A stretch of DNA of 64,000 nt from an uncultured virus (IMG/VR IMGVR_UViG_3300043932_000242) (taxonomy: Duplodnaviria > Heunggongvirae > Uroviricota > Caudoviricetes). How positions within the stretch are numbered: position 1 is the first letter of the stretch; each line of letters starts with the position of its first letter. The translations under genes were made by a program, and so were the position numbers. The notes below the pieces were generated by a model. It was given only the letters and a program-made list of their open reading frames with translations. It did no database searches and was not told the DNA's origin. Shown piece by piece: positions 6,832 to 41,504 of this stretch. Location: IMG/VR virus record IMGVR_UViG_3300043932_000242. The stretch is one strand, 5' to 3'.

Positions 6832-9800
6832 GTGAAGTCGCTAAACAACGTCGGCGCCGAGCGCCTGGGAAACGCCCTCGGCGAATCCATCGACGACGGC
6901 GCGAAGCTGTCGATAATCAGCTCGTATTTCACCGTGTTCGCCTACGGGGAGCTCAAGGAGGAGCTCTCCAAGGTCGACGAGGTGCGCTTCCTGTTCAGCG
7001 AGCCCACCTTCGTCAAGCGCATGGCCGACTCGAAGGAGCCGCGCGAGTTCGAGGTCGCCCGCCGTGCGCGCGAGGTCGGCGTCGGCGGCTCGGGGCTCGA
7101 GCTCACGCTGCGCAACAACCTCAACCAGCGCGCGCTCGCCCGCGAATGCGCCGAGTGGATCCGCGAGAAGGGCGTCTTCAAGTCCGCCAAGACGTCCGGC
7201 GCCATTCAGCCGGGCGGCACGTACGTGGTGGAGAACCCCTCCGGCGACGACCACGCCTTCATGGGCGCCGCCGCGAACTTCACGCAGGAGGGCCTCGGCT
7301 ACGAGCGCCGCCCGGGAACCGTCACCTGCGTGAGCCATTTCGAGAATGCCACCGAGGCCGTCGGCCTCAAGATGATGTTCGAGTCGGTATGGGACAACCC
7401 CGCAATGGTCGAGGAGGTCACCGCGCAGGTTGCCGCCCAGGTCGAGACGCTCTACCGAGAGAACCCGCCCGAGTTCATCTATTTCCTGACCCTGTACCAC
7501 CTGTTCCGCGACTTCATGGAGGACGACGAGGACAACGGCATCCGCCCCGGCCTCAAGTTCGAGGAGTCCGCGGTCTGGAACAAGCTCTACGACTTCCAGA
7601 AGGACGCCGTCGTGGGCGCCATCCGCAAGCTGGAGAAGTACAATGGCTGCATCATCGCCGACTCGGTGGGCCTGGGCAAGACCTACGAGGCGCTCGCCGT
7701 CATGAAGTACTACCAGGAGCGCAACGACCGCATCCTCGTGCTGTGCCCGAAGCGCCTGCGGGACAACTGGACCCTGTGGACCCAGGACAACGACGACCGA
7801 AACCCGCTGGCCGACGACCGCTTCAGCTACACGGTGCTCAACCACACCGACCTGTCGCGCTACCACGGCATGAGCGGCGAGGTGGACCTCGAGCACCTGC
7901 GATGGGGCCACTTCGACCTCCTCGTCATCGACGAGAGCCACAACTTCAGGAACAAGAGCACCGACGCGGACAAGACCGACCGCTACACGCGCCTCATCGA
8001 GGACGTCATCAAGTCTGGCCAGCGCACGAAGGTGCTCATGCTCTCGGCCACCCCGGTGAACAACCGCCTGCTCGACCTGCGCAACCAAATCGAGCTCATC
8101 ACCGAGGGAGACGACGCGTACCTTGAGGAAACCGACGGCATCCCGTCTATCACCCACGTGACGCGCGTCGCCCAGCAGAGGTTCAACGAGTGGAGCAAGC
8201 TCTCCGACTCTGAGCGAACCACCGAGAGCTTCGTGAACGCGGTGAACGCCGACTACTTCAAGCTGCTCGACGTGCTCACCATCGCGCGCAGCCGCAAGCA
8301 CATCACGAAGTACTACGGCGCCGCGAGCGGGACATTCCCGGCACGCCGTGCGCCCCTGTCGTTCCAGACGCCCATCGACCTCGACGGCGAGCTGCCGCCG
8401 ATAGCCGAGCTCAACGACATGATCGCCCAGCTCACGTTCGCCCAGTACCAGGTGCTCTCCTACGTGCGCGCCGACCGGCGCCGCAAGTACGAGGACCGCT
8501 ACGGGGACACGTGGGGCAAGGACTTCGAGAGCCAGGTCCACCGCACGACGGCGGTGGCAAACCTCATGCGCATCAACGTCCTCAAGCGCATGGAGTCCTC
8601 CGTGAACAGCTTCCGCATCACCCTGCGCCGCATCCTCGACGGCTGCGTCGACCTGCGCGCGAGGCTCGACGCCGACGCGTCGGGGGTCGCCTACGGCACC
8701 GAGGGCCTCGAGGACGGATTCGACGACGACGATGCCGAGGAGTTCGAGGCCGGCGGCAAGGTGCGCGTCGACCTGCGCGACGTCGACGCCCTGCGCCTGG
8801 GCCAGGACCTCGACTTCGACATCCAGGTACTCCGGGCCCTGCTCGCCTACGCCGACGCGGTGACGCCCGAGCGCGACACCAAGCTCGTGAGGCTGCGCGA
8901 CTTCATCGCGGAGAAGGTCAGCAACCCGTACAACCCCGGCAACCGCAAGGTGCTAGTATTCAGCGCGTTCGCCGACACGACTGCGTACCTCTTCGAGCAG
9001 CTGGCCCCCTGGCTGAAGCGCGAGCTCGGCATCGAGTGCGCCGAGGTGGCGGGCAGCTCCAACCGGACCTACTCGCTGAAGCTCCCCAGGACCACATTCG
9101 AGAACATCCTCGCGAGGTTCTCTCCTGTCTCCAAGGAGCTGCCGGAGAGCCAGAGGACGCTCGGCGAGATCGACGTCATCTTCGCGACGGACTGCATCTC
9201 CGAGGGCCAGAACCTGCAGGATTGCGACTGCCTGGTGAACTACGACATCCACTGGAACCCGGTGCGCATCATCCAGCGCTTCGGCCGCATCGACCGCCTG
9301 GGCTCGAAGAACGGACAGATCCAGCTGGTCAACTTCTGGCCGGACATCGCGCTCGATGAGTACATCCAGCTCGAGGGCCGCGTGAAGGGGCGCATGGCGC
9401 TGCTCGACGCGTCGGCCACCGGCGAGGAGAACGTGCTGGAGGCAAAGGGCAACGGCGAGATGAACGACCTCAAGTACCGCCGCCAGCAGCTCCAGCAGCT
9501 CAAAAGCGAGGTGCTCGACCTCGAGGACATCTCGGGCGGCATCTCGATCACGGACTTCGCCTTCGACGACTTCCGCGTGGAGCTCCAGCGCTACGCGAAG
9601 GAGCATCCCGGCGCGCTGGAGAACTCGCCGGCGGGCCTCCACGCCGTGGCCCCCATACCCGACGAGCTTCGCGGCGACGTGAAGCCGGGCGTGGTCTTCT
9701 GCCTCAAACAGAACGACGAGACCAACGACCCCAGGGACACGAACCCCGTCTTCCCGTACTACGTGGTGTACGTGTCGGGCGACGGCGAGGTCATGACGAA

Positions 9801-10077
9801 GCACACCCAGCCCAAGCCGGCGCTCGACATCATGCGCGCCGTCTGCTCGGGGCACCCCGAGCCCATCGCCGAGCTGTGCCGCGAGTTCAACCGCGAGACC
9901 CGCGACGGGACGAGGATGGACGCCTACGCCGACCTTCTCGACGACGTGGTGGCGGCCATCACCGGGACTCAGCAGGACAAGGGCATCGAGAGCCTGTTCA
10001 GCCTGGGCGAGGTCGGCAGCGGCACCGTCATGGGCTTCAACGACTACTCGCTGGTATGTTTCGCGGTGCTGCGATGA
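6832..10077 (+). CDS. SNF2-family helicase with PLD-like N-terminal domain (type III R-M associated)
   Basis: ADSVGLGKT, DESHNFRN, MLSATP, SEGQNLQ, IIQRFGRIDRLG; N-terminal SSYFT...ANFT region. Confidence 0.9.
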   Translation: MKSLNNVGAERLGNALGESIDDGAKLSIISSYFTVFAYGELKEELSKVDEVRFLFSEPTFVKRMADSKEPREFEVARRAREVGVGGSGLELTLRNNLNQRALARECAEWIREKGVFKSAKTSGAIQPGGTYVVENPSGDDHAFMGAAANFTQEGLGYERRPGTVTCVSHFENATEAVGLKMMFESVWDNPAMVEEVTAQVAAQVETLYRENPPEFIYFLTLYHLFRDFMEDDEDNGIRPGLKFEESAVWNKLYDFQKDAVVGAIRKLEKYNGCIIADSVGLGKTYEALAVMKYYQERNDRILVLCPKRLRDNWTLWTQDNDDRNPLADDRFSYTVLNHTDLSRYHGMSGEVDLEHLRWGHFDLLVIDESHNFRNKSTDADKTDRYTRLIEDVIKSGQRTKVLMLSATPVNNRLLDLRNQIELITEGDDAYLEETDGIPSITHVTRVAQQRFNEWSKLSDSERTTESFVNAVNADYFKLLDVLTIARSRKHITKYYGAASGTFPARRAPLSFQTPIDLDGELPPIAELNDMIAQLTFAQYQVLSYVRADRRRKYEDRYGDTWGKDFESQVHRTTAVANLMRINVLKRMESSVNSFRITLRRILDGCVDLRARLDADASGVAYGTEGLEDGFDDDDAEEFEAGGKVRVDLRDVDALRLGQDLDFDIQVLRALLAYADAVTPERDTKLVRLRDFIAEKVSNPYNPGNRKVLVFSAFADTTAYLFEQLAPWLKRELGIECAEVAGSSNRTYSLKLPRTTFENILARFSPVSKELPESQRTLGEIDVIFATDCISEGQNLQDCDCLVNYDIHWNPVRIIQRFGRIDRLGSKNGQIQLVNFWPDIALDEYIQLEGRVKGRMALLDASATGEENVLEAKGNGEMNDLKYRRQQLQQLKSEVLDLEDISGGISITDFAFDDFRVELQRYAKEHPGALENSPAGLHAVAPIPDELRGDVKPGVVFCLKQNDETNDPRDTNPVFPYYVVYVSGDGEVMTKHTQPKPALDIMRAVCSGHPEPIAELCREFNRETRDGTRMDAYADLLDDVVAAITGTQQDKGIESLFSLGEVGSGTVMGFNDYSLVCFAVLR

Positions 10078-10847
10078 GCGGCGTCGACTGGAGCGGCATC
10101 CTGCGCCTGCCCGATGCGGCGCTCGCCGGATGCCGCCGCATCCCCAAGACAGTGCTCGTCAAGCAGGCCATGCTCACCAAGACCGAGCAGAAAAGGCTCG
10201 ATAAGGTCGCGCGCCTCGAGCACTTCGCCACGGTCCAGAAGTCCACGACGCGCGTCCCGCCGTACGAGGACGACGAGCGCAACGTGCAGAGCATAGTCTT
10301 CCTCCGCTGCGAGACGGCACCCGGAACCATGGCCGTGGCGGAGGTGGCGGATCTCGTGCACAAGTGCTTCCCGAACCCGACGGTGCTCCTGATCGAGGCA
10401 GGCGGCTCCGCGTGCATATCGGTCGCCCTCACGCGGAAGAGCCAGGCCGAGCAGGGCGCGACGGTCGTTGACCGAATCGAGTCGACAGGAGCGTTCGACC
10501 CGGGTGATCCGGAGTACGCAGATTTCCTAGGCGCGCTGGCATTTGGGCGGCTCTCGCAAGGCGACCTCTGGGAGTACCTACTCGACATGGCGCGTGTTGT
10601 GGCGCTGTCCCGTGCGATCGGCGGCCTGGGGTTTTACCCCAGCTGTCCCACTCAGGACCGGGAGAAGCTGATTGTCCTCACGGCGCGTTACGGTGAGCTA
10701 GGAGCCTCTGTCAAGCGGCTGAGGGAACGGCGGCGGTCGAAGGACATAACGCTCAACGAGTCCGCAAAGCTGAGGATGGAAATGAAGGAAGAGGAGCAAC
10801 GCCTAAGGGCGGTCGCCGATGAGATAAAGGAGATCTGCAATGGCTGA
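10074..10847 (+). CDS. DUF4391-like protein
   Basis: ATGA overlap with helicase stop; LRLPD...RRIPKT start and coiled-coil C-terminus; position between SNF2 and mod. Confidence 0.7.
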   Translation: MSGVDWSGILRLPDAALAGCRRIPKTVLVKQAMLTKTEQKRLDKVARLEHFATVQKSTTRVPPYEDDERNVQSIVFLRCETAPGTMAVAEVADLVHKCFPNPTVLLIEAGGSACISVALTRKSQAEQGATVVDRIESTGAFDPGDPEYADFLGALAFGRLSQGDLWEYLLDMARVVALSRAIGGLGFYPSCPTQDREKLIVLTARYGELGASVKRLRERRRSKDITLNESAKLRMEMKEEEQRLRAVADEIKEICNG

Positions 10848-11217
10848 CATCGAGAAGGTGGACCTCGCATCGGAAAACCTGGTTGACGACCGCCTGGACA
10901 AACTCAAGGCATTGATGCCCGAGGTGTTCACCGAAGGCGGAATCGACTTCGACAAACTGAGGTTGGAGCTTGGCGGCGAGGTCGACGAGGGCCAGGAACG
11001 CTACGCGTTCACATGGCCCGGCAAGGCCGACGCCATCCGCCAGTCGCAGATTTCCAGCACTGCTACTCTGCGTCCCTGTATCGAGAAAAGCCGCAGCCGC
11101 GACGGCGAGGATGGGTCCTTCGACTCGGACAACATCTACATCGAAGGTGACAACCTCGAGGTGCTGAAGCTCTTGCAGCGTGGCTACCACGGCAAGGTGA
11201 AGATGATCTATATCGAC
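10840..11217 (+). pseudogene. mod: Type III R-M modification methylase, 5' part, interrupted by prophage at the DPPY motif
   Basis: ERYAFTWPGK...NIYIEGDNLEVLKLLQRGYHGKVKMIYID stops before the expected PPY; ORF runs on in unrelated sequence to 11379. Confidence 0.9.
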
Positions 11218-11321
11218 GTATCTCTGCGGACATGGATACAAAGACATGGGTGTTTGCGGATTGACGCACTGCGACGCACAACGACGCATGGTGTGCCTCC
11301 GCGATATTTCAGCGGTTACAC

Positions 11322-11375: not shown

Positions 11376-12950
11376 CTAGATCGGGATGCTGATTTCTTGG
11401 CCGGCTTTGAATCGGAAGGTGATCTCAGCGTCGGAGACCACAGCATCCTCAATCAAGCTCACCCACAGTCGTGGGCTGAACTCGATGGGCGTGCCGCTTT
11501 TGCGTAGCTCCTGGAACGCTGCCAGTACGATGCTGCGCCGATGATCGGTGCCTGTGATGCTTTCAGCCAGTGCCGCTTCGCGTTCCTCGAGTTCCACGCG
11601 TCTTGCGTCGAGCTCCTCGTAGGTGGTGAGGAAACCGGCCCGGTGCTTAGCGGTGCGTGCGTTGAGCGCAACGAGCTCCTCCATCTGCTCTACCACCCGT
11701 GCAAGCTCTTCTTGGACGGCCTCGTGTTCCTGTCGCTGGTCGGTGGTGTCGAGTGCTTCGGCAACTGCCTGTGGCAGGACCTCATCAAGCTCACGAAGGT
11801 GGCTGGCGAGGTTCCTCACTGCTTGCATGAACAGTTCCTCGATCTGCGTTGGTCGCAGTGTCGCGCTGGTGCACTTGTGTTCGCCGGCGAACTTGTTGTT
11901 ACAACGCCAGGCTTCGCTTTGATACTTCGAGCCCGAATGCCAGACCTTCCGCCCGTACCAGCTACCGCAATCCGCACACACTAGTCGCGAGGAGAACACG
12001 CTGGTCTTGGAGCGTCGGTCGTTGTATCGGGTTGCGAGCTCGTATTGGACCTGCATCCAAGTGTCGGGGTCGATAATGGCTTCGTGGTGGCCTTCGACGT
12101 AGTACTGGGGCACTTCCCCTTCGTTGGGCCTGACCTCTTTGGTGAGGAAGTCCGCGGTGTAAGTCTTTTGGATGAGCAGGTCGCCCTTGTACTTCTCGTT
12201 GCCCAGGATGGACCGGATCGTGCCGATGTTCCAGTGACTGTTGCCGCGCACGGTTCGGTGTCCTTCGGCTTCCAGGATGTCGCAGATGCGCTGCATGGAG
12301 CAGCCTTCGAGGAACAGGTCATATATGCGACGGACGATGGGGGCTTGTGTCTCATCGATGACGAGGGTTTTGTCTGGCCCTTCCTTGTAGCCCAGGATGC
12401 TGGAGTACGGGATGATGGCTTTGCCTTGGGCGAAGCGCTTGCGATGCCCCCAGGTGACGTTCTCACTGATCGAGCGGGCTTCTTCTTGCGCCAGCGAGCT
12501 CATGATCGTGATGAGCAGCTCTCCCTTGGCATCAAGGGTCCAGATGTTTTCCTTCTCGAAGAAGATCTCGACCCCTGCTTCTTTGAGGCTGCGCACGTGG
12601 GTCAGGGAGTCCACCGTGTTGCGCGCGAACCGGGAGACACTCTTGGTGACGATCAGATCGATCTTGCCATCGAGGGCGTCACGGATCATTTCTTGGAACC
12701 CTGCACGCTTCTTCGTGGAGGTTCCGGAGATGCCCTCATCGGTGTAGATCTTGACTAGTTCCCAGTCCGGCCTACCGGTGATATATGCCGTGTAGTAGCC
12801 GACCTGGGCCTCATACGAGGTGGCTTGGTCCTCGTTACCGGTGGACACTCGCGCATAGCCGGCGACTCGTCGTTTGGCTGTGACCGGTGCGGGCGTTGCG
12901 CCAGAGCGGACAGCCTTGGTCGCCGGGATCGTTGTGACCTTGGGGTTCAT
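11376..12950 (-). CDS. Large serine recombinase (integrase) 1
   Basis: VAGYARVST, DEGISGT, TKSVSRFARN, recombinase domain, CADCG zinc ribbon, coiled coil. Confidence 0.95.
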   Translation of the reverse strand: MNPKVTTIPATKAVRSGATPAPVTAKRRVAGYARVSTGNEDQATSYEAQVGYYTAYITGRPDWELVKIYTDEGISGTSTKKRAGFQEMIRDALDGKIDLIVTKSVSRFARNTVDSLTHVRSLKEAGVEIFFEKENIWTLDAKGELLITIMSSLAQEEARSISENVTWGHRKRFAQGKAIIPYSSILGYKEGPDKTLVIDETQAPIVRRIYDLFLEGCSMQRICDILEAEGHRTVRGNSHWNIGTIRSILGNEKYKGDLLIQKTYTADFLTKEVRPNEGEVPQYYVEGHHEAIIDPDTWMQVQYELATRYNDRRSKTSVFSSRLVCADCGSWYGRKVWHSGSKYQSEAWRCNNKFAGEHKCTSATLRPTQIEELFMQAVRNLASHLRELDEVLPQAVAEALDTTDQRQEHEAVQEELARVVEQMEELVALNARTAKHRAGFLTTYEELDARRVELEEREAALAESITGTDHRRSIVLAAFQELRKSGTPIEFSPRLWVSLIEDAVVSDAEITFRFKAGQEISIPI

Positions 12951-12953: not shown

Positions 12954-14603
12954 TTAGGCCTCCTGTCCGCGTTCGTGTCGTGCTCGGATTCCGGCTCGGA
13001 TTGCTGCGGTGGTGCGTTCACGGAATTCCGGGTCTGCCCACAACTGCTTCATGCGTTCACTTTTTGTCTGCCGTACTTCTGGTCTGCGATGCGCTTGACT
13101 GGTGGCCTGGCGTCGTTGTGCTTCTTTCTCGGCGCTGCGCTCAGCGTTGAGACGCCGCATCAGTTCGCCGTGCTTTGCTCGCCGCTCTGGGGTCCAGCGT
13201 TCGGCGAGCTTCTGCGTTGTCTGCTCGCTCTTGACTCTGCCGCGGTTTCCTTGCCGGGCGATACGCTCTTCACGTTCTTCGGGTGTGAGCGAATCCCAGA
13301 AGGCGCGGAGCTTGCGTCCATGCTCGGCCCGGTATCCGGGTTGGTCCCAGTGAACTTTGCGTCGGGGCGGATAAATGATCGTGTGATTGGTGCTTGTTCC
13401 GTCCTTGAGGGTTACGGTTGCTTGCGTCACTGTGACGGCAATCTTGGCTACGTGTTCCTCCACCATGGCCGGGTCGTACTCATCCATCCCCAGCGCATCA
13501 CACAGCACGGTCTCAATGCTGGTCGTCGGGATCCTGCGTGAGGGGCATGGCCCTTCCTGTTCCCGCTTCGTTTTGCACACCCACCCGCGGGATCGTGAAC
13601 CGTCCTTGTAGCGCACAGTGCGTGACCGGTAGACCTGCCCGCAGTGTTCGCACCAGATCAAGCTGGTCAGCTCGCTAGTGGTAATCGACCAGTTCGCTTT
13701 CGCTCCCAGGCTTCGCCGCCTTGCGTGTTCTTCTTGGACGGCTTGCCACTTCTCGCGGCTGACAATGGGCGGGATTGCGTCTTCCACAAGGTACATGGGC
13801 TGCTGGCCAGTGTTGAGGATCGCGTGGGTAGATCTGGACGAGGGCGTGAACCATCGCCCGAGCAGCAGGTCACCTGTATAGGTGCGGTTGCGCAGAATGT
13901 GTCGGAGGGTCTGCGGGTTGAAGGACTCCCCGCTGCGGTTGGTTTTGTCTTGGGATGTCAGGATCTCGACCATCCGCTCGCACGAGACTTGTTGAAGGTA
14001 TTGATCGAATACCCAGCGGATGATCTCGGCTTCTTCCTCAATGATCTTCACATCACTGGCGTCAGCAGAGTTGGTGTACCCATACATGCGGAACCCGTTA
14101 GCTCGGCCTTCTTCGAACCGCTTCGTTACTGCCCATCGCACATTGGCTGACTGTTGTTCGGATTCAGCTTGAGCGAAGGAGGCAAGCAAGGTCAGTAGGA
14201 ATTCGCCGTCAGCACTGGCGGTGGAGATGCGCTCCTTCTCGAATCGCACTTCGACGCCAAGTGAGCGCAGCTCCCTGACTGCCTCAAGCAGATCGACGGT
14301 GTTGCGGGCGAACCGCGAGACGCTCTTGGTCAAGATCAGGTCGATCTTGCCGGCTCTTGCCTGGCTCATCATGTCTTGGAATCCGCTGCGGGTGCGGGTA
14401 GACCGCCCGGAGATTCCGTGGTCGGAAAACACGCCAGCAAACACCCACCCGGGGTGGCTAGCAATGAGGTCTTGGTAGTAGGCGATCTGAGCGGCGTAGG
14501 ACCCTTCACTGCGGTCGGTGATCATCGAAACGCGGGCATAGGCAGCTACCTGCACCATGCCGGATGGGCCAGGTTTCGCGGGGCTAGTTTGTATCGAAAC
14601 CAT
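12954..14603 (-). CDS. Large serine recombinase 2 with basic repetitive C-terminal extension
   Basis: VAAYARVS, DHGISG, TKSVSRFARN, CEHCG ribbon; tail with W..PE.R repeats. Confidence 0.9.
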   Translation of the reverse strand: MVSIQTSPAKPGPSGMVQVAAYARVSMITDRSEGSYAAQIAYYQDLIASHPGWVFAGVFSDHGISGRSTRTRSGFQDMMSQARAGKIDLILTKSVSRFARNTVDLLEAVRELRSLGVEVRFEKERISTASADGEFLLTLLASFAQAESEQQSANVRWAVTKRFEEGRANGFRMYGYTNSADASDVKIIEEEAEIIRWVFDQYLQQVSCERMVEILTSQDKTNRSGESFNPQTLRHILRNRTYTGDLLLGRWFTPSSRSTHAILNTGQQPMYLVEDAIPPIVSREKWQAVQEEHARRRSLGAKANWSITTSELTSLIWCEHCGQVYRSRTVRYKDGSRSRGWVCKTKREQEGPCPSRRIPTTSIETVLCDALGMDEYDPAMVEEHVAKIAVTVTQATVTLKDGTSTNHTIIYPPRRKVHWDQPGYRAEHGRKLRAFWDSLTPEEREERIARQGNRGRVKSEQTTQKLAERWTPERRAKHGELMRRLNAERSAEKEAQRRQATSQAHRRPEVRQTKSERMKQLWADPEFRERTTAAIRAGIRARHERGQEA

Positions 14604-14633
14604 CACAAGTCTCCTTCCTTTTCTTGGCACCTC

Positions 14634-14665
14634 CATACACGCTCTAGTGCGCTTCGATATCAAGT
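14634..14665 (-). promoter_or_regulatory. Putative promoter CTTGATA-N18-TGTAT upstream of recombinase 2
   Basis: Same architecture as the promoters at 34089-36766. Confidence 0.5.
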
Positions 14666-14874
14666 CATGCTGCCGGTTTCGCGGCGTTGTATACGGGTTT
14701 GAAGCTCTGACGCAGCCGCCGATCTATCACGCCCATTTCGGCCTCGGTGAGGAGACCTTGCTCAAGCTGTGTGGCAAGAAACGTGTGGGCGATGTGCCAG
14801 GCGAGCTCAGCGTTGAAGCGTTCAGGGGTAGCAAGCACATTCACGGCATCGCACGGCGTGTGCGGGGTCGTCAT
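14665..14874 (-). CDS. Small SHOCT-like protein (possible recombination accessory factor)
   Basis: LEQGLLTEAEMGVIDRRL; position immediately upstream of the recombinases. Confidence 0.6.
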   Translation of the reverse strand: MTTPHTPCDAVNVLATPERFNAELAWHIAHTFLATQLEQGLLTEAEMGVIDRRLRQSFKPVYNAAKPAA

Positions 14875-15245
14875 CGTCCACCTCTGGTCCCGAAACGAGC
14901 GCGCACGTAGCAGGTGTGGCAGCAGTACTTCGCCCCGCCGATGGCCGCGAACTTCTCACCGCACTGCGGGCAGACCGCCCACGAGTCTGGGTCTGCCAGC
15001 CTGCGGGTCTTCCACAGCCTCCACCGGCAGGCGTCCGAACACGTCAACCGGGTCTTGGCAGCATCCGCAGGTAGCTCTCCACCACACCCGGCGCACACTC
15101 GTGTGCCGCCACTGTCCACGGCTGGCTTGCGGCGCAGATAGGACGCCACCGTCGTGCGGGCCATCCCTAACGCCTGCGCTATCGCACTTGGCCCATAGCC
15201 GGCCCTCGTCATCTGATCGATCCTGTGTCGCTTGGAATCATCCAC
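14871..15245 (-). CDS. HTH (sigma-70 region 4-like) plus zinc-finger protein
   Basis: AGYGPSAIAQALGMARTTVASYLRR; CAGC, CSDAC, CPQC, CCHTC. Confidence 0.75.
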   Translation of the reverse strand: MDDSKRHRIDQMTRAGYGPSAIAQALGMARTTVASYLRRKPAVDSGGTRVCAGCGGELPADAAKTRLTCSDACRWRLWKTRRLADPDSWAVCPQCGEKFAAIGGAKYCCHTCYVRARFGTRGGR

Positions 15246-15449: not shown

Positions 15450-16382
15450 TCAGGAGAGCTTGCGGTTGACGATCGCTTGAACAGCGTCGTAGAGGTGGCC
15501 GAGCCGGTTGCGGCGCTCAGCCCCGTTGCCGTACTCGCCACGAATCACCGCATCCGCCAGGGCCTCCAGGTTCGGGCCCGGCGCAGCAGCGGGTGCACTG
15601 CCAGAGAGCTTGGCGTTAACACGTGCTTGCACCGCTTCATAGAGGTGACCCAAGCGGGATTTACGATCCTCGCCGTTTCCGTAGTTTCCTCGGATCACCG
15701 CATCGGCCAGGGCGTCAATGTCAGGAGCTGGTGCTGGGGTTGCAGGCGCAGTAGGTGCAGGCTGGGACGCACGACCGGCAAGAATCTCGTTGACCCTGGC
15801 CTGGACTGCCGAATACTGGCTACCCAGGCGGGCTTTGCGGTCCTCACCGTTGCCGTACTCGCCGCGGATGACCGCCTGGGCGAGTGTCTCAATGTCCCCG
15901 CCGACGCTGGGTGCGGGAGCAGCAGGGCTGCCGCCGCCTGTGATGTAGGGGCCAAGCACGCTGGCGGGCGGATAGTAGCGGCCCGGGCAAGCGGTGGATG
16001 AGGCATCCTTGTGGCCGATGATCTTGAGCGGCCCGTAGGTGGCCTGCAGGTTTCGGATCAGCTCACCGATGGTTGCCTTGTCGGCATCCGAGCAGCGTGG
16101 GTTGCACTCGATGCCGATGGAGCACTGGTTGATAGGCCAGTTGCCGGCATGCCAGGCGGTGTTGGCCAGGTCAACCATCTGCACCACGCGGCCTGCTTCG
16201 ACCACGAAGTGAGCTGATGCTCCTCGTCCGGGGTTTTGGAAGGTGGCGATCACGCCGGACAGTTGCGGGTTGCGCGCGGGGTCGTCCCAGTGGTGGATGA
16301 CGATGGTGGTGATGCGCTTGCCGCCACGACCCTTGGTGTAGTTTGACGGGTGTGCTGGGGTGAACGACTGCTGGTAGCTCAT
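15450..16382 (-). CDS. Endolysin: Amidase_2 plus three CW_7 (Cpl-7) repeats
   Basis: IVIHHW, SAHFVV, AWHAG, SIGIE, GHKD..STACPG; three copies of LAxAVIRGxYGNGxxRxxRLG. Confidence 0.92.
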   Translation of the reverse strand: MSYQQSFTPAHPSNYTKGRGGKRITTIVIHHWDDPARNPQLSGVIATFQNPGRGASAHFVVEAGRVVQMVDLANTAWHAGNWPINQCSIGIECNPRCSDADKATIGELIRNLQATYGPLKIIGHKDASSTACPGRYYPPASVLGPYITGGGSPAAPAPSVGGDIETLAQAVIRGEYGNGEDRKARLGSQYSAVQARVNEILAGRASQPAPTAPATPAPAPDIDALADAVIRGNYGNGEDRKSRLGHLYEAVQARVNAKLSGSAPAAAPGPNLEALADAVIRGEYGNGAERRNRLGHLYDAVQAIVNRKLS

Positions 16383-16939
16383 GGTGTCTCCTTCGGTTGG
16401 TTGTCGGGTACGAGAAAGCCGCCGGCAGAACTGCGCGGCGGCTGAGTGGACTCGGGGGAATCGCTGTCCCCGGGTGGGGTCGGTGGCGGATCACCGGCCG
16501 GGTCATTGACGGGCGGGCCGGTATAGGCATGCCGCCCCTGGGCCGGATGCTGGGTGATGGTGGCCAAGGCATCGCGGAGCTTGTCTGGGACAGGAAGCCC
16601 AATACGGGCAGCGTTTTCCACGATGGAGAGGCCCTCGTTGGCCAGGTAGAAGAAGATCGTGGCTGTCCTAAGGACTCCGCCTTCACCCAGGACGTGCACG
16701 TCGAGGATGTTGGCTAGGCCCACCAGGGCGAAGATCATGACCTTGCGGGCGATCCCCTTAAACCCCACCGAGCTGGAGAGCTCCCCGGTGGCGAAGGCGG
16801 CGATGACGCCGGTTGTGTAGTCGATGGCCACCAGGGTGACCAGGGCGAGCAGGAAACCGTCTGTGCCTCCTAGAAACCAGCCCACAATTCCTCCAATAGT
16901 GGTGAAAAGTGTGTGTGAAACAGTCCAGGCAGTGCGCAT
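16379..16939 (-). CDS. Holin (phage holin 4/toxin-secretion type)
   Basis: IDYTTG...LSSSVGFKGIARK...NEGLSIVENAARIGLPVP. Confidence 0.9.
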   Translation of the reverse strand: MRTAWTVSHTLFTTIGGIVGWFLGGTDGFLLALVTLVAIDYTTGVIAAFATGELSSSVGFKGIARKVMIFALVGLANILDVHVLGEGGVLRTATIFFYLANEGLSIVENAARIGLPVPDKLRDALATITQHPAQGRHAYTGPPVNDPAGDPPPTPPGDSDSPESTQPPRSSAGGFLVPDNQPKETP

Positions 16940-16962
16940 GGGCCTCTCCTTTCTGGGTGGTG

Positions 16963-17205
16963 TTAGAGCAGGCCGTCTGGGCCGGTGAGGACATCGAGGA
17001 CTTCCCAGGCCACATCCACCGAGCCTGTGCTGGCCTGCGGCAACGGCACACTGACCGGTGTCGGGTTTGCCGCTGGGATGGGTGTGGTGTCGTGGTCGGG
17101 TTCCAGTAACACCGAATGCGCCGTGCTGCCCAGCCCATTCGAGCTCTCACCGGCGGACTCGATAGTTTCGGTGGTGGCCTCGACGGTGTCGGTGGTGTCA
17201 CTCAT
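16963..17205 (-). CDS. Acidic hypothetical protein
   Basis: Overlaps upstream gene stop; RBS GGAGGTG. Confidence 0.5.
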   Translation of the reverse strand: MSDTTDTVEATTETIESAGESSNGLGSTAHSVLLEPDHDTTPIPAANPTPVSVPLPQASTGSVDVAWEVLDVLTGPDGLL

Positions 17206-17653
17206 CCCCGCTCACCTCCTCCTCGGTGGTGGTGGCTAGGTGTGCTTCCAGGGCGTCACACAGGTGGTCGTAGGCAGCAGCCTCATCACCAGCAAGCGGC
17301 TGGGTGAGCGCGGTCAGTGCCTCATACAGAGTGCGCGCCATGGTGGTGTACGACGGGCCAGACAGTTCCGCCCGTTCGGCGAGCAGCACGCCCCTGGCCT
17401 GGATGAAGGCGGCCGCCTGCTCAGGAGTGGCAAAACGAATGTGGCCGTCGCCGTCGACCTCGGGTGTGCCAGTCGTATCGCACAGGGCGTGCTCGCGGGC
17501 AAGCTCCAACTCGCTTTCTGCGAGATCCTGGGCGGCCAGGGTGGCCATGGCCAGGACTTTGGAGCGGGCTCTGGAAGCGGCACCAGCAAGCGGCAGCGAG
17601 GTGAGTAGTTCGCAGATGCTGGTGAGGTACTGGTTGGTGATGATGATAGGCAT
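17198..17653 (-). CDS. DUF1617-like phage protein
   Basis: LAGAASRARSK...AAAYDHLCDALE; position between tail fibre and holin. Confidence 0.6.
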   Translation of the reverse strand: MPIIITNQYLTSICELLTSLPLAGAASRARSKVLAMATLAAQDLAESELELAREHALCDTTGTPEVDGDGHIRFATPEQAAAFIQARGVLLAERAELSGPSYTTMARTLYEALTALTQPLAGDEAAAYDHLCDALEAHLATTTEEEVSGDE

Positions 17654-17680
17654 CGGTTTCTCCGTATCTGTCAGGGGTGG

Positions 17681-20600
17681 TTAGGTGAGGTTGGTGGACA
17701 TGGTGGATTGGCCGGTGTTGGAGAAGTACTCCCAGGTCACCCGCCCACCACCGGCGTCACGGATGGTTTTGATCCAGCCCTGGTTGAGCAAGCCAATCAA
17801 GGCGTTGACCCGGCTCATGAGGTCCTTGACCCGGTCGAACAGGCGGGTCATGTTGTAGTAGGACCCGTTGGAGACCACCATGACGTCGTAGGTGTGGAAG
17901 GCGATCTTGGCCAGGTTGTTACTCGAAGACCACCCCGGGAACGTGCCCAGACCGTTCAGCGTGACGTCTTGGAGGGAGATGGAGCGGTTGCCGGCGGTGT
18001 AGAACGACCACCCGTGTGTGCGCAAGCTGCTGCCCAGGTGAATGCCGGACTGGCCCCAGAACTTCCCCTTGGGATCCAAGGTGAGCATTGTGGTGAACAC
18101 TGTTGCTGTCGACGAGGCTTTATACGCCCAGTCCACGAAGTCCCCGGTGTACTCCAGCGCGTTCGTAATGCCTCGAACGTCTGGGTAGTCCTTCTTGTAC
18201 TGCTCGCCGATCCGCCCGATCTTGCGAGTGCCATACCAAAACGCCATACCCTGGCTGGTGATCTGCCCCTCCAGGGTGGACCCGTCATACCAGGAGATCG
18301 AATACGGGGTAATCCGGATCGTGTTCGACCAGCCCGCCAGGCCTACCTGGATCGCATTGGAGGCAAGCTTGTCCGCGGTGATCGACCGCGACCCGATCCG
18401 TGCAGCGCTCAGGGTGCCGGTCGTGATCTTGCCGGCATCCAGCGAGCCGATCTTCGCGCTGGTGATCGCAGCATCTGCGATCATGGCGGTCTTGATGAAC
18501 CCGGCTGCGATCGTGAGCTTGTCGCTGGTGATGCTGCCTGCACCGATCCGCGCAGCATTCAGGGTGCCGGTGGTGATCTTCCCGGCATCCAGGCTCGCGA
18601 CCTTCGCGCTGGTGATCGCGGCATCCTTGATCATCGCGGTGGTGATGTAACCGGCAGCGATCGAGAGCTTGTCGGAGGTGATCGAGGAGGCGGCGATACG
18701 CGCGGCACTTATATAGCCACTGGTAATCTTGGCGGCATCCAGGCTCGCGATTTTCGCACTCGTGATTGCCGCGTCCTTGATCATCGCAGTCGTGATGAAC
18801 CCAGCAGCAATCGAGAGCTTGTCTGAGCTGATGGAGGCTGCCTTGATGCGGGCAGCATCGAGGTAGCCGGTGGTGATTTTCGCAGCGTCCAGGCTGGCGA
18901 TCTTCGCACTCGTGATAGCCGCGTCTTTGATCATGGCGGTCGTGATGAACCCGGCAGCGATCACCAGCTTGTCGGAGCTAATGGAGGCGGCCTTGATGCG
19001 GGCGGCATCCAGGTAGCCGGTGGTGATCTTGGCGGCGTCCACCGCGCCGATCTTGGCGTTGGTGATGGCGGCGTCAGCGATCATGGATGTCTTGATCACG
19101 GCCGTATCAATGAGTGCTTGCCCGGTGACGTGCAGGCGTTTGCCGGCGATCAGCTCGACTTCTGGGGAGGCGTTGATCGCGGCAATTACCCCACCGGAAC
19201 CAACCTTGCCGTCCACCTCTCCTTCGAGGGCCTGGTAGGCGGCATCGAAGTCGGTGTCCATCTGGTTGATGCGATCGGTGAGCTCCTTGTCCTTGTCACC
19301 GAAGTCAGCCCTGGCCTTGGCGATAGCGTCGTCAACCCGGGCCGACAAGTCGTGGACAGCCTGCCCGTTTGCTGCGTCCCCGGCCTGAAAGTCAACGCGC
19401 ACCTGGCTGATCGCAGAGTTAATGTCCTCTTCCAAGGCCTGGGCTTGCTGTACTGCCTGGTCGAAACCTGCCTGCATGTCGGTGCGTACCGACGCCACCT
19501 CGGCATCGAACTCACTGTTCATCTGGGTGATCCGCCCACCCAGGTCGGTGCTGATCTGGGCGATCTCAGCGCGCGTTTTCTCCAGTTCTGCGTTGATCGC
19601 TGCGGCGGTGATATCTCCGGCGACCTGCACCCAGCCAGGTATGCCCTGGCTGGTGGTTTGGTACACCCAGATCGCCACCGCCCCATCGCCCACGTCCTGA
19701 AACCAGGTATCACCCAGTCGGGCACCCGCAGGCTCGACCTTCTGGTAGTAGACAGTGTTAGACCCGTTAGCCGAGATCAACGCCATGGCAGTGTCTTCTG
19801 CCCGGGTAGCCGCCTGCGCGGTCAGCGCCTTGATCTGACCCGTCAGCGACCGGGCTGCCACCACGCTGGGGTTGGTGGCCAAGGTCAGTGACTCATACAC
19901 CCCGGCAAGTGGGTTGAAGGTGTAGCCGGTGATACGGGCGGTCGCCTGCAGACCATAGGAGTCGGCATGCACCGTCACCCGATCCCCAATCAGTACTTGC
20001 TCTAGGCCTACCTGGTCGGGAGCCATCTCGGCCTCAATGACGAGGGCGGGCTGGTCGACATGCTCGACGCTAAACAGCCCGCCGGCCGCATCCCGCAGCG
20101 CCGCGAGAGCCTCATCCCTGGGCAGCTCGCCCTCACCGGGGTTGGCCGGATCCTTCGCGGCCTTGATCTGGTCGAAGGAGACCACACGGATATACGGGTG
20201 CGGATAGTCAGTGATGCGAGGTGAGTCGATGAAGACTTCCGGCAAGGTCAGTCCGTCAAAGCCGACCGGCAGGATGCGGGTGGCAAGGCTGGTGGTGTCG
20301 CGAGTGACGGTCAAGCCTGTGAGGTTTTTGCCTTCCCACACACTCGCCCCGCGGTCCCTTCCACGCGCGCTCACCCAGGTGATGCGGGTGTTGTCGCGGA
20401 TGATCTCCCCACCCCACCGTGAGAGCAGTCCGACTTCGTCATCGACGAGGGCTTCCAGGCCGGTTTTACGCACCCACCGAGCTGTCGTGCGATACCCGAT
20501 ACTCGTAGCAGGGCCCGCGGTGAACGGGTGCGGGGCTGACAGGGAGGAGAGCAGGTAGGCCAGGGCCTCGCTGGCGGTGCGGTTCACGGCCGCCCTATCC

Positions 20601-20905
20601 ACGATCACGTTCGATGCGAGGTCGCTGGTGATGTGGGTGCAGGTGGCGGTGATCAGCTGGTCGCTGGTGGCTTCCAGAGTGGTGATGCGAAACCCCTGAC
20701 GGCCCAGGCCAGGAACCGGGGCGGCCACAATGTCACCCTCTGCCACCATGCCCAGCTCACCCAACGGCCAGGCCAAGGACAGCGTGAATGCCCCGTTGAT
20801 CTCTTCACTCACCTCGGCGCTGGCCAGGTGGGGGTCGAGCACCATGCGGCCGCTCGTGGTGTAGGTGTCGCCCGGCTGCAGGGTGGGGGTATGCAGGGTG
20901 ATCAT
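17681..20905 (-). CDS. Tail spike/minor tail (Tal-like) protein with coiled coil and 50-aa repeats
   Basis: EEINGAFTLSL, RWGGE, GKNLTG, TRILPVG N-terminus; repeat region; C-terminal gp58-like domain. Confidence 0.85.
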   Translation of the reverse strand: MITLHTPTLQPGDTYTTSGRMVLDPHLASAEVSEEINGAFTLSLAWPLGELGMVAEGDIVAAPVPGLGRQGFRITTLEATSDQLITATCTHITSDLASNVIVDRAAVNRTASEALAYLLSSLSAPHPFTAGPATSIGYRTTARWVRKTGLEALVDDEVGLLSRWGGEIIRDNTRITWVSARGRDRGASVWEGKNLTGLTVTRDTTSLATRILPVGFDGLTLPEVFIDSPRITDYPHPYIRVVSFDQIKAAKDPANPGEGELPRDEALAALRDAAGGLFSVEHVDQPALVIEAEMAPDQVGLEQVLIGDRVTVHADSYGLQATARITGYTFNPLAGVYESLTLATNPSVVAARSLTGQIKALTAQAATRAEDTAMALISANGSNTVYYQKVEPAGARLGDTWFQDVGDGAVAIWVYQTTSQGIPGWVQVAGDITAAAINAELEKTRAEIAQISTDLGGRITQMNSEFDAEVASVRTDMQAGFDQAVQQAQALEEDINSAISQVRVDFQAGDAANGQAVHDLSARVDDAIAKARADFGDKDKELTDRINQMDTDFDAAYQALEGEVDGKVGSGGVIAAINASPEVELIAGKRLHVTGQALIDTAVIKTSMIADAAITNAKIGAVDAAKITTGYLDAARIKAASISSDKLVIAAGFITTAMIKDAAITSAKIASLDAAKITTGYLDAARIKAASISSDKLSIAAGFITTAMIKDAAITSAKIASLDAAKITSGYISAARIAASSITSDKLSIAAGYITTAMIKDAAITSAKVASLDAGKITTGTLNAARIGAGSITSDKLTIAAGFIKTAMIADAAITSAKIGSLDAGKITTGTLSAARIGSRSITADKLASNAIQVGLAGWSNTIRITPYSISWYDGSTLEGQITSQGMAFWYGTRKIGRIGEQYKKDYPDVRGITNALEYTGDFVDWAYKASSTATVFTTMLTLDPKGKFWGQSGIHLGSSLRTHGWSFYTAGNRSISLQDVTLNGLGTFPGWSSSNNLAKIAFHTYDVMVVSNGSYYNMTRLFDRVKDLMSRVNALIGLLNQGWIKTIRDAGGGRVTWEYFSNTGQSTMSTNLT
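18360..19100 (-). repeat. 150-bp (50-aa) intragenic tandem repeat, about 5 copies
   Basis: KITTG codons recur at 18421, 18571, 18721, 18871, 19021. Confidence 0.9.
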
Positions 20906-21594
20906 GGGTGCCTCCAACGAGGTAGGAGCCGGCCAGACACACCAGCAGGGACACTGACGGTCGTGGTGCCGGCAGGCAGGACAGGAAAATCAGTAGCCGT
21001 CAGGGCATCGAGTGCGATCTGCCCGGAGACGGTGCAGGTGCGTGCCTCGCAGTCGATCACCAGCTCACCTGAGCCCGGCAACCGCACGGTGTACGGCGTA
21101 GCCCCGATGCGGAAAGTGGCTTGCCCCGAGCCCGTCAGCGTGATGATGGGGCGGGCTGGAATGAGACTCGGGTTGCTCACCCGCACACTCCCACCGGCTG
21201 GCAAGGTGATGGGGGTAAGGCCCGACTCCAGGTAGGTGAACGGCCGGCAGGCGATCTCCAGGGTGGCCTGAAAACGGCTACCAAACCTGGCCACTTCTGA
21301 AACTGCGGCAGAGGCGGTGAGGAAGAAGCGGCCAGGCAGGTGGCTCAGCCGCAACTCCAACCCCGGCGTGGCACACACCCCAGCCAAGCGGTCGATGACC
21401 TCAAGTGTGGGGGCAAGCAGGCCGATCGTGAGGGTGCGAAGGCTCCAACCTCGCGGGCGCATCAAACGGCCCTCCCCGCCGATGATCTCCACCTCATCCA
21501 CCGCCCTGGCTGTCGGGGTGAGTACCGGTGGGTTGGTGATGCGGCAGCCGGTGGTATGCGAGTTGAAGGTGCCGAGGATAAACGAACGCACCAT
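20902..21594 (-). CDS. Distal tail protein (Dit-like)
   Basis: Position after tape measure; CRPFTY, NPS...RPIITLTGSG, DFPVLPAG, PRWR. Confidence 0.8.
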   Translation of the reverse strand: MVRSFILGTFNSHTTGCRITNPPVLTPTARAVDEVEIIGGEGRLMRPRGWSLRTLTIGLLAPTLEVIDRLAGVCATPGLELRLSHLPGRFFLTASAAVSEVARFGSRFQATLEIACRPFTYLESGLTPITLPAGGSVRVSNPSLIPARPIITLTGSGQATFRIGATPYTVRLPGSGELVIDCEARTCTVSGQIALDALTATDFPVLPAGTTTVSVPAGVSGRLLPRWRHP

Positions 21595-21602
21595 GTCCTC
21601 CT

Positions 21603-24251: not shown

Positions 24252-24284
24252 AGGTGGTCTCCTTGTATGGGTAGCGCATAGGAC

Positions 24285-24322
24285 TAAGCCCCGCACCCGG
24301 GCAAGGTTGGGTGCGGGGCTTA
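24285..24322. promoter_or_regulatory. Perfect 14-bp inverted repeat between chaperone and tape measure genes
   Basis: taagccccgcaccc ... gggtgcggggctta. Confidence 0.6.
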
Positions 24323-24535
24323 GATGCCTGGCGGGATGATGTCGTCGATGGTGGGCTCAACACCGTTGCGGCTGGGTTGTTCGTGTTGCCAGTGGCATTC
24401 GACCAAATCCAGGAGCACACCGAGTGGGAGCAGCGCTGTCTGCCAGCGGTCCAGGTGCAGGTAGCGGTAGGCCAAGTACGTGAGCCTCGTGAGGGTTTCG
24501 GCCCAGCTACTGCCTGTGGTTGTGCTGCTCAGGCT
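24320..24535 (-). CDS. Tail assembly chaperone C-terminal extension (gpGT-like), reached by -1 frameshift; absent from the ORF track
   Basis: -1 frame reads SLSSTTTGSSWAETLTRLTYLAYRYLHLDRWQTALLPLGVLLDLVECHWQHEQPSRNGVEPTIDDIIPPGI*; no ATG in frame; slippery C CCA AAA at 24541-24535. Confidence 0.8.
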   Translation of the reverse strand, partial: SLSSTTTGSSWAETLTRLTYLAYRYLHLDRWQTALLPLGVLLDLVECHWQHEQPSRNGVEPTIDDIIPPGI

Positions 24536-24930
24536 TTTGGGGAGGCAACCTCACGGCGCATGCCCGCCTCCAAGGCAGCGGTGATCGCGTCCTTATAGTC
24601 GGCAAGCTCCCCGGGAACGGTGAGCAGCTCAACCTCCTCAGCGGTGATCTGCGGCCACTCATCCCCGCCTGTATGCAGGTTGTGGATGAGGACGGACTGA
24701 TTGGCCAACAGGGCGATCAGCCAGCAGATTTCACCGATCTGCTCACCCAAATCATTGGAGGATTCCAGCTTGTCGCCAAGCTGCTCAAGCCCGCCGTAGC
24801 GGGAGGCGATCTCGCGGGTAGCGCGGGTGGTGAGCACCAGCTCCAGGTCTCGTCCGCCCAGGCGGATGAACGCTGAGTGCCCCGGGCCTTCGGGCAGCAC
24901 ACTGGTGGGGTTCTTCTTCTTGGTGGCCAT
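24529..24930 (-). CDS. Tail assembly chaperone (gpG-like)
   Basis: ELVLTTRATREIASRYGGLEQLGDKL; between major tail and tape measure genes. Confidence 0.85.
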   Translation of the reverse strand: MATKKKNPTSVLPEGPGHSAFIRLGGRDLELVLTTRATREIASRYGGLEQLGDKLESSNDLGEQIGEICWLIALLANQSVLIHNLHTGGDEWPQITAEEVELLTVPGELADYKDAITAALEAGMRREVASPKA

Positions 24931-24941
24931 GCGTGTTCTCC

Positions 24942-25544
24942 TTAGTTGCCAGAGCCTGCGGTCGTGGTGGTGTAGGCCGGCTCATACACGGTCTTGAACC
25001 AACCATCGGTGATAGTCTTTGCGGCCTCGCCTTCGGTGGTTTCCACCTTCCACGGATGCTTGCCTGAGGGGTCGGGCTTGGTGCGGCGCAGGATCGTGCC
25101 CTCGATCTCCGGGGTGGAAAACTCGATCGAATCGCCCTTGGTGGTAAGCGAGGCAGTAGGTACGGCGAAGCGGACCTTATAGAGCCAGAAATACCGGTAG
25201 GTGCCATTCGCCTTGCGGGCACGAAACCCGATCGCAACCGGCGCCCCACCATCCTCGGATGTGGAGACCAGCACCTTGTTCTTATCGATGATGGCGCCAA
25301 CCAGGTCGGCGGCAACCTCGGCACTGATGTCATCCACACCCAGGGTCAGGGTGCCGGACTTGAATTCTTTGACGACCTCTGCAGGTCCGTCATCGGCATA
25401 CAGTATCGCTTCGGCGACTTCGATGGACACCTCCGCGCTGATCGCCTTAGCCAGCTGCTTAGGCGTGCCGTAGGTTTCCTCACCAGTGGAGGGGTTTTCC
25501 GTGATGGTCGCGTAGTAGAGAGAGTCGAGTCCGATAGTTGCCAT
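24942..25544 (-). CDS. Major tail protein (phi13-like)
   Basis: MATIGLDSLYYA, LYADDG, VAIGFRARKANGTYRYFWLYK. Confidence 0.9.
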   Translation of the reverse strand: MATIGLDSLYYATITENPSTGEETYGTPKQLAKAISAEVSIEVAEAILYADDGPAEVVKEFKSGTLTLGVDDISAEVAADLVGAIIDKNKVLVSTSEDGGAPVAIGFRARKANGTYRYFWLYKVRFAVPTASLTTKGDSIEFSTPEIEGTILRRTKPDPSGKHPWKVETTEGEAAKTITDGWFKTVYEPAYTTTTAGSGN

Positions 25545-25562
25545 GATGGGGGTTTCCTTTCG

Positions 25563-25913
25563 TTAGAGCAGGTGGTGGGTTTGGGTGTCGATGGCGTAGT
25601 GGTGGTAGCTGGTCTCGTCCTCGAAGCCGATATAGGAACGGGACGTGATCGTGACACCAGCAGCCAGTAGCGCGGCGGTGAGCTGGTCGCGAAGGGTCAG
25701 GTAGTTGCCCCGCGCATACACGGACAGGCGTGCTTCTTCGATCTGGGCTCTTGGGGTGTTATCCCCGTATAGGGCCAGGGTGTCGACTAGTGGGGTGAGC
25801 ACCACGAACGCTTCCGGCAGTGGGGTTTTGGTAAACAGTCCCACCCGCACCGGCAAGTCGAGCTTCTCGCAGGTGGTGGTGAGGTGTTCCAGCAGTGGGA
25901 TGCTCTCGCTCAT
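25563..25913 (-). CDS. Tail terminator/completion protein
   Basis: YIGFEDETSYHHYAID; synteny. Confidence 0.7.
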   Translation of the reverse strand: MSESIPLLEHLTTTCEKLDLPVRVGLFTKTPLPEAFVVLTPLVDTLALYGDNTPRAQIEEARLSVYARGNYLTLRDQLTAALLAAGVTITSRSYIGFEDETSYHHYAIDTQTHHLL

Positions 25914-26676: not shown

Positions 26677-26779
26677 CGGACACTACCTTTCCAAAAGTGA
26701 AGACGATTATGGGCAAGCCCGCGGGAGACTCATGCTGGGTGCATCCGAGCAGTAGAAATCAGCTCTAGAGCCAAGCCGC

Positions 26780-27913: not shown

Positions 27914-27985
27914 AAGGGAAAATTGCTGTAATGACGAGCGCCGAGAGTGGCTTCCAGGAGATCATCTAGCTGGGGTGCCCTCCCG

Positions 27986-28303: not shown

Positions 28304-28331
28304 CCGCCACCTCCTTATCGCTTGCTGGGGT

Positions 28332-29561: not shown

Positions 29562-29582
29562 GATCAGTGTTCCTTTCACGAT

Positions 29583-41502: not shown

Positions 41503-41504
41503 GG

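Follow-up and report, generated by a model that had tools for sequence, protein, structure and literature searches.

A prophage junction at the DPPY codons of a type III methylase gene, and related serine integrases at other methylase motifs

Results

A type III methylase gene broken beside two serine integrases

The 64,000-nt stretch of DNA analysed here (the window) carries on its plus strand a run of genes in the order SNF2-type helicase, DUF4391 protein and methylase gene starting at 10840, the last of which breaks off next to a pair of minus-strand integrase genes. The features at this end of the window are as follows.

6832..10077, plus strand: SNF2-type helicase, with which the interrupted defence operon opens (Pfam Helicase_C, SNF2-rel_dom and ResIII; PADLOC C3a139 ‘HKD+Snf2’, 1.9e-112)
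9876..10847, plus strand: DUF4391 protein (Pfam DUF4391, 7.1e-27), coordinates of the open reading frame (ORF) as listed; the true start may be further in
10840..11217, plus strand: 5′ part of a type III mod gene, 126 codons of which the last six read KMIYID (identity to relatives)
11215..11216, plus strand: GA crossover dinucleotide, bases 1-2 of the DPPY Asp codon (register in four other attL junctions and symmetry of the Actinotignum urinale attP)
11217..11248, plus strand: P′ arm of attL, with ATACAA at 11236-11241 (conserved register)
11376..12950, minus strand: Int1, large serine recombinase, 524 aa (Pfam Resolvase, Recombinase and Zn_ribbon_recom)
12954..14663, minus strand: Int2, second large serine recombinase, 569 aa, in tandem with Int1 (Pfam)
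14871..15245, minus strand: small HTH_38 protein with a Cys-rich tail, syntenic with the integrase pair (Pfam HTH_38)

By direct reading, the plus-strand ORF at 10840-11379 runs ...GYHGKVKMIYID, with the codon GAC at 11215-11217, and thereafter VSLRTWIQ...; in the methylase ORF sequence, ...EGDNLEVLKLLQRGYHGKVKMIYID, the VSLRTWIQ... tail stops at 11379. Residues 1-126 are free of frameshift and share 90-95% identity with the best 120 of 8000 scored relatives, which are mostly full-length methylases of 610-680 aa; several of the listed relatives are named at source as site-specific DNA-methyltransferases, from Collinsella or Slackia. Where the fragment breaks off, three relatives (P0001, P0004 and P0044) continue DPPYNTGHDF. 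The fragment shares 94% identity with P0001, a protein that the PADLOC model MTase_III recognises at 6.2e-191. The fragment is that of an N6_N4-family type III Mod and ends at the D of DPPY (motif IV).

Three full-length Mods searched by tblastn against the whole window gave a sole match at 10840-11232 (E ~1e-70), all further matches having E values of at least 0.096. Because the matches stop there, PPY and the entire 3′ half of mod are absent from the window. These results confirm a preliminary description of this DNA, made from its letters, in which Mod runs to KMIYID and then switches to unrelated sequence lacking PPY some 160 bp from a serine integrase; the end of Int1 lies 158 nt from the Asp codon. 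The same description held that a missing 3′ mod half at the far end would refute its reading; tblastn finds none within the 64-kb window, which does not extend to attR. Nor does a res gene stand beside mod in the window, with no REase_III among the ORFs scanned.

Int1 and Int2 are spaced 3 nt apart, and PF00239, PF07508 and PF13408 are present in both. The closest solved chain to Int1 is 3g13_A, a putative conjugative transposon recombinase (5.9e-44). Searches with Int1 in three collections (genome, viral and metagenome), with 80 loci listed from each, returned proteins of 44-60% identity; the best full-length relative reached 54%, barring partial matches of at most 70% and the window’s own IMG/VR record, and the best match in the phage collection reached 52%. 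Because there is no close Int1 relative in the three collections, the same phage was not seen at the same site elsewhere. Two matching IMG/VR records, L081 and G001 (55,660 bp), are pieces of the window itself (5379-18950 and 2659-58318). An Int2-like gene adjoins the Int1-like gene in 129 of 233 loci. The neighbouring HTH_38 protein has a homologue in the same place in A. urinale (35% identity) and is, at a guess, a candidate regulator or recombination directionality factor. Full-length, unbroken mod genes lie a few hundred to 1700 bases downstream of Int1 homologues at L020 (6704-8623) and L024/L124 (8119-10101); these may be type III R-M cargo.

The junction shares its register with other split mod genes

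Five junctions align in one register of B arm, GA, 19 nt and ATACAA: those of the window, of A. urinale, of L027, of G002:C48 and of L193. The window junction reads ...ATGATCTATATC GA CGTATCTCTGCGGACATGG ATACAA, and the phage supplies the C after GA, giving the codon GAC, still Asp. The broken mod ends ...RCIYID in L027, from a Selenomonadaceae MAG, and ...RVIFID in L193, a metagenome contig; a second broken mod, ending KMIYID, lies in the same Selenomonadaceae MAG on another contig than L027. Intact mod genes were read at the site in 13 Coriobacteriaceae loci for comparison, and the intact gene of L269 has a 42-nt B arm identical to that of the window, followed by GA CCCGCCGTACAACACG.

The junction might instead be an assembly chimera, an alternative already named in the preliminary description, or a pseudogene truncated by chance beside a prophage. 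The window does come from a metagenome-type assembly and its far junction lies outside it. Against this, four independent relatives break at this very dinucleotide and have ATACAA at an equal distance of 19 nt; the mod fragment stays in frame, and an intact homologue has the identical B arm. All sampled 31-mers of 10700-11900, including every one across the junction, are present in six sequencing runs, which are not independent support because they may be the window’s source. Since ATACAA at 11236-11241 shares its register with four independent mod junctions, the break is not a chance truncation, and together with the L269 identity this register is one that neither a chimera nor a chance truncation would give. 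We regard both as extremely improbable, and on this sequence comparison the junction is a genuine serine-integrase attL at the Asp codon of DPPY.

Searches of the window for an attR returned no match to the P-arm pattern TTGTAT N19 GA, and the reverse complement of the P′ arm, at up to 3 mismatches, found itself and two matches no better than chance. The window’s last bases had no exact match in metagenome contigs. Because neither a P arm nor mod sequence occurs at any other position in the window, attR lies beyond 64000 or has been lost.

Among 272 Coriobacteriaceae genomes searched with P0001, 70 matched and none showed a window-like split. Two other arrangements of mod were observed in this family. 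Mod homologues 96% identical to P0001 (G255:C1, 1008505-1013748; also G183:C42 and G092:C49) match its residues 1-405 and 399-622 in two parts about 3.4 kb apart, an insertion or spare cassette within the target-recognition region in at least 3 species. At L276 (G140:C54, ~126200-126560), an insert of ~370 bp lies 5 nt past the same GA, with a CCGC duplication at its flanks (GACCCGC...CCGCCCTAC) and without the arm motifs of the Int1 family; the mod motif there is apparently the target of a small element of another kind.

An Actinotignum urinale prophage retains both halves of mod

The same event with both halves of the gene in place is found in A. urinale (L012). On contig C2, the 5′ part of mod (query residues 14-127) ends KMIYIE at an attL codon GAG (Glu); the 3′ part (residues 120-604) begins DPPYNTG, and a type III res gene (PADLOC REase_III, 3e-185) comes next. 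Neither half contains a stop, and the two lie on one strand, ~48 kb apart, with a syntenic prophage between them. Beside a run of N in the same scaffold, the other arm is joined to the P′ arm, an attP in which 40 nt run from TTGTAT to ATACAA and the middle two are GA; its P′ arm does not differ from the attL one in the 45 nt compared. We could thus read attP, attL and attR in A. urinale, whereas the window has only attL with its P′ arm. Because GA centres this attP, the crossover is placed at bases 1-2 of the Asp codon. The proposal in the preliminary description that a conserved R-M motif serves as attB is borne out by the same crossover in A. urinale, at two places in the Selenomonadaceae MAG and in the metagenome contig.

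Copies of the same arm from attP and attR flank a 10-N gap at ~9900-10120 of L012, and the assembly apparently contains phage DNA in its integrated as well as its excised state. The attP shows that excised, circular, concatemeric or replicating phage DNA existed in the culture; it does not imply a switch.

The two phages are syntenic, with identities of 77% for TerL, 74% for portal, 60% for SNF2, 53% for PolA, 49% for Int1 and 42% for Int2. The integrase end of the A. urinale prophage faces the 3′ half of mod and that of the window prophage the 5′ half; because the elements lie reversed relative to mod, the orientation of GA relative to int is opposite in the two phages. PolA-, antirepressor- and Int1-like fragments lie just upstream of the split mod in A. 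urinale (L178, 8900-10830; C2, ~176.9-178.8 kb), and its type III system may lie within the remains of an earlier phage of similar kind.

Prophage genes and the defence genes at the right end

Beyond the integrase pair, the window continues with the following features.

15450..33662, minus strand: lysis, tail, head and packaging block (amidase/CW_7 lysin, holin, tail tip, Dit, tape measure, capsid, ClpP protease, portal and TerL; Pfam)
36804..39195, minus strand: phage ParB-N6_N4 methylase (orphan) and SAM synthetase (Pfam)
39286..51351, minus strand: early genes (TerS, HNH, SNF2 helicase, D5-type primase, antirepressor, family A polymerase, Enc34-type ssDNA-binding protein and DUF2800 nuclease; Pfam), all with syntenic homologues in the A. 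urinale prophage
52376..52787, no strand: module boundary between phage early genes and defence genes (contigs of runs X8 and X23)
53135..56483, plus strand: Lamassu defence system of LmuA (1.1e-43), LmuC (4.9e-28) and LmuB (4.8e-117) (PADLOC)
56248-56724: HTH_26 gene preceding the type I R-M system (Pfam)
56753..63840, plus strand: type I R-M system of two hsdM, hsdS and hsdR (Pfam; PADLOC MTase_I, Specificity_I and REase_I)

Every gene from 14.9 to 51.4 kb is on the minus strand, and IMG/VR gives 2659-58318 as a provirus of estimated completeness 100. The element is a complete siphovirus-type prophage. Several smaller observations concern its genes. The ParB-N6_N4 methylase gene overlaps the SAM synthetase gene, and its DPPY codons read GACCCGCCCTACAAC, similar to the phage’s attB in the B′ arm and different in the B arm. 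At 26780-27913 and 34076-35307, direct repeats of ~315 bp with 87-88% identity lie in a structural-gene region, and two DUF6900 ORFs are related through a 79% repeat. The tandem hsdM genes (56753-59817) are complete, each with its own DPACG-type motif I, and other members of the Int1 family could potentially insert in either.

We consider it probable that Lamassu and the type I R-M system are phage cargo and that attR lies outside the window. Their status goes no further than likely because the window lacks attR, res and the 3′ part of mod. The competing account has the phage end at ~52.4-52.8 kb, leaving Lamassu and type I R-M to host DNA or to an island of their own; the 3′ half of mod would then have been lost or moved, the insertion would be a dead end, and the phage would have brought no R-M swap. 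In its favour, the contig of a related phage in run X8 tracks the window to 52787 and then leaves it for 2874 nt of unlike sequence, which makes 52.4-52.8 kb at least a module boundary. In an independent run, X23, contigs match parts of 52778-63929 (95-99% identity), and G+C, 0.61-0.65 over the phage, is lower (0.55-0.60) beyond 54 kb.

Four observations speak against an island. The 52.4-52.8 kb boundary holds neither a P arm nor mod sequence, and a contig of a probable source run, X1, is unbroken over 49996-64000 and extends at least 2142 nt further. In X23, a contig whose match starts at 52376 is directly preceded there by 30 letters of which 29 equal window 11880-11909, a string within Int1 that is unique in the window; GGC follows at both the 11909 and the 52376 sites. 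From its letters, this join looks like a 40.5-kb internal prophage deletion with GGC microhomology, and the contig like a prophage remnant from which the phage was removed and Lamassu and type I R-M were kept; such a deletion keeps the defence genes linked to the attL side. Finally, the A. urinale prophage has, between DUF2800 and attL and inside its att sites, 8.4 kb with a LlaJI-like R-M system (N6_N4 methylase, C5 methylase, AAA_5 protein and RE_LlaJI) at the position that Lamassu and type I R-M occupy in the window. X8 is almost without cover after 52787 and X23 without cover before 52376, gaps that are not evidence of absence; run X7 gave short pieces of low likeness, from which nothing was drawn, and runs with small 31-mer shares were excluded from mapping. 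A separate island or host DNA at the right end is, in our judgement, unlikely. The replacement of one R-M system by another, as the preliminary description had it, gains support by analogy only, from the LlaJI-like genes inside the A. urinale att sites.

Related integrases abut methylase motifs of several kinds

The preliminary description had proposed a survey of integrase homologues for mod targeting. A first survey with Mod proteins and a Mod profile (HMM) found three split mods among 239 loci (L027, L193 and L012). A clade of mod-targeting integrases had been expected and was rejected: the four are scattered, their last common ancestor spanning 193 of the 195 tips of the Int1 tree. Because of this scatter, all 239 loci were scanned for the arms GA N19 ATACAA and TTGTAT N19 GA, after which the host side was read. 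The mod-only survey had made targeting look rare; the arm-based scan led to commoner targets, hsdM-like genes. The survey recovered mod junctions in register, and mod DPPY turned out to be one of several methylase motifs used, a wider range than the preliminary description had pictured.

Under the strict patterns, the junction falls at an Asp or Glu codon in 36 of the 239 loci. Of these 36 classified junctions, 22 have a host side ending ...F/Y-x-T-P...x-x-D/E, the sequence that leads up to motif I; in 11 the host side opens with D-P-x-x-G-S/T-G, and 3 are the mod cases. Pfam searches of 72 distinct host-side ORFs of at least 60 aa gave 19 with HsdM_N and N6_Mtase ending at profile positions 46-52, 8 with an N6_Mtase match starting at position 52, 1 with HsdM_N only, and 1 type ISP, 1 MmeI, 1 THUMP-type RNA methylase and 3 serine recombinase genes. 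Target counts among the 239 loci are lower bounds because of short flanks, cargo between int and att, and variant arms. Six loci with an identical Int1 and an identical P arm (L018, L019, L111, L112, L203 and L204) abut four different methylase genes, which read DPFMGSGST..., DPTSGSGSLL..., DPAAGTGGML... and DPACGSGSLL....

The B′ arms have an invariant GA-Y-C-C, with GG at +12/13 in 10 of 11 and at +18/19 in all 11; the B′ arm of mod, GACCCGCCGTACAACACGGG, has GAYCC and the GG at +18/19. B arms agree less than B′ arms, and that of mod misfits the hsdM B-arm consensus. From these alignments we infer that the enzyme probably reads mainly GAYCC N13 GG in the B′ arm. GAYCC N13 GG corresponds to codons of D-P-x-x-x-x-G, which are common to motif I (DPxxGxG) and to motif IV of Mod (DPPYNTG).

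Some family members have another serine recombinase gene as their insertion site, the break reading ...KID|LIVTKS or ...VYAD| (L072, L075 and L209, and L070 by eye), a nesting of element in element within the Int1 family.

Discussion

We hold with considerable confidence that a temperate phage was integrated by its serine recombinase module into an attB at the DPPY codons of mod, which should have silenced a type III system. The attP of a siphovirus-type phage would have recombined with an attB formed by the codons ...KMIYI-D-PPYNTG in type III mod. The reaction would be the work of Int1, probably together with Int2, with strand exchange at GA 11215-11216. Its product visible in the window is attL, made up of the mod 5′ arm, GA and the phage P′ arm. 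At the far end we would expect attR as P arm-GA-CCNCCNTAYAAY followed by the mod 3′ half and res, or in full TTGTAT, 19 nt, GA, CCNCCNTAYAAYACNGG, ~500 remaining mod codons and res.

Type III and type I restriction both require the methylase subunit, and the fused MmeI-type and ISP enzymes are single proteins. As restriction depends on the methylase, a cut in the methylase would turn restriction off too and be harmless to the cell; Mod, cut before its catalytic motif, would thus leave the whole type III system silenced and the cell alive. The phage would bring its own methylase and SAM synthetase, and most likely also Lamassu and the type I R-M system, as cargo for the lysogenic side, an exchange that might benefit phage or host. 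Excision by serine integrases is conservative. Such excision would rebuild GAC-CCN and an intact mod, provided that the 3′ half persists, and the rebuilt attB would read ...ATYGAYCCNCCNTAY.

Methylase motifs may alternatively be safe harbours that are conserved, widespread and dispensable, like tRNA genes, with R-M silencing as a side effect in place of a counter-defence or switch. Non-defence targets are part of the family’s range, namely a THUMP-type RNA methylase (L087) and the integrase genes of L072, L075 and L209, and a phage that has already integrated has already passed restriction. According to the accessible part of Durrant et al. 2022 (PMC10083194), serine-integrase targets are not enriched in or near anti-phage defence genes. 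On the other side, most classified targets are methylases essential for restriction (HsdM, Mod, fused MmeI-type and type ISP), and both comparable prophages carry replacement defence genes; these two points are no more than suggestive. Taking both sides together, we see the safe-harbour account as a serious contender whose chances fall somewhat below even.

A broader reading would extend silencing with replacement to the family, and we find it evenly balanced. Paired serine integrases would have evolved to read DNA encoding D-P-x-x-x-x-G, with a GA crossover, such that resident immunity is reversibly replaced by that of the element. The family would be large and cross-phylum, carried by phages and other elements, and would find a portable attB wherever an R-M methylase exists, one integrase serving for several unrelated methylase genes. 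Type I, III, IIG/IIL and ISP systems would be silenced while the host survives, and the elements would deliver defence genes of their own.

The survey turns a single odd junction into a testable rule, in which an integrase family appears to find its site through the codons of a protein motif. Every amino-methylase must keep such a motif, which would explain related elements in Actinomycetota, Bacillota and Selenomonadaceae hosts, and motif targeting would explain split R-M methylase genes. If the insertions are reversible, excision of prophages and ICEs would be an unrecognised source of on/off changes in methylomes and restriction barriers of gut and oral bacteria. Knocking out a resident R-M system while importing a new one bears on the turnover of defence repertoires. 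For work on how such enzymes recognise their targets, the family supplies serine integrases whose target, GAYCC N13 GG in the B′ arm, is short and can be defined.

Comparison with known systems

The splitting of methylase genes by serine-integrase elements has precedent in streptococcal ICEs. For the variant that targets motif codons, a search of the full-text literature (titles and abstract starts, with supplements and most subscription journals outside its range) found no description of a prophage in a type III mod or of integration at DPPY or DPxxGxG codons.

TnpX and TndX of Tn4451 and Tn5397 are large serine recombinases with a GA crossover and relaxed target choice. The likeness to our system lies in the large serine recombinase and in the closest solved chain to Int1, that of a putative conjugative transposon recombinase. 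Unlike TnpX and TndX, Int1 and Int2 are without DUF4368, the domain that Durrant et al. link to a multi-targeting clade in the portion available (PMC10083194), and their targets are methylase motifs.

In the parts of the reports available, streptococcal ICEs with serine-integrase triplets insert in hsdM (PMC4701971), and Tn1806-like ICEs in hsdM, snf2-methylase and Eco57I-type methylase genes, one such element having been moved experimentally into several methylase genes (PMC12942858). The authors suggest that genes of the element possibly compensate (PMC4701971, PMC12942858). The flanking repeats of Tn1806-like ICEs are given as TGGG/GGGA, and in the available text of that report the words ‘motif’ and ‘catalytic’ occur 0 times, and the site is not linked there to a methylase motif (PMC12942858). 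Our system shares with these ICEs several tandem serine integrases, the splitting of R-M methylase genes and the use of several such genes. Whereas they are conjugative and streptococcal and carry three integrases, the window has two, along with virion, lysis and packaging genes and without conjugation genes; its crossover is GA as against TGGG/GGGA, its host is Collinsella-like and its target is motif IV of a type III mod.

Serine-integrase elements that split genes (‘active lysogeny’) include, in the accessible parts of the reports, SPbeta/SprA in spsM, skin in sigK and gin in gerE (PMC5499854, PMC5025042, PMC5595907), and phi10403S in comK is mentioned in the available part of another (PMC4701971). 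As in SPbeta and skin, a large serine recombinase puts a prophage within a coding sequence, from which conservative excision can rebuild the gene, and SprA of SPbeta is among the solved relatives of Int1 (9dxh, 3.6e-12). The window prophage differs from SPbeta and skin in its target, an R-M methylase cut at the catalytic motif, and in having a tandem pair of integrases; excision under developmental or other regulation is not known for it, and its far junction lies outside the window.

Phi-m46.1 and other streptococcal elements integrate at the 3′ end of rum, an RNA uracil methylase gene (PMC4288039, PMC4701971; parts available). There too, a phage or ICE lies within the gene of a SAM-dependent methylase, a hotspot that many elements share; unlike the mod and hsdM sites, that in rum is at the 3′ end and not at a motif for catalysis or SAM binding, and rum does not belong to the defence genes.
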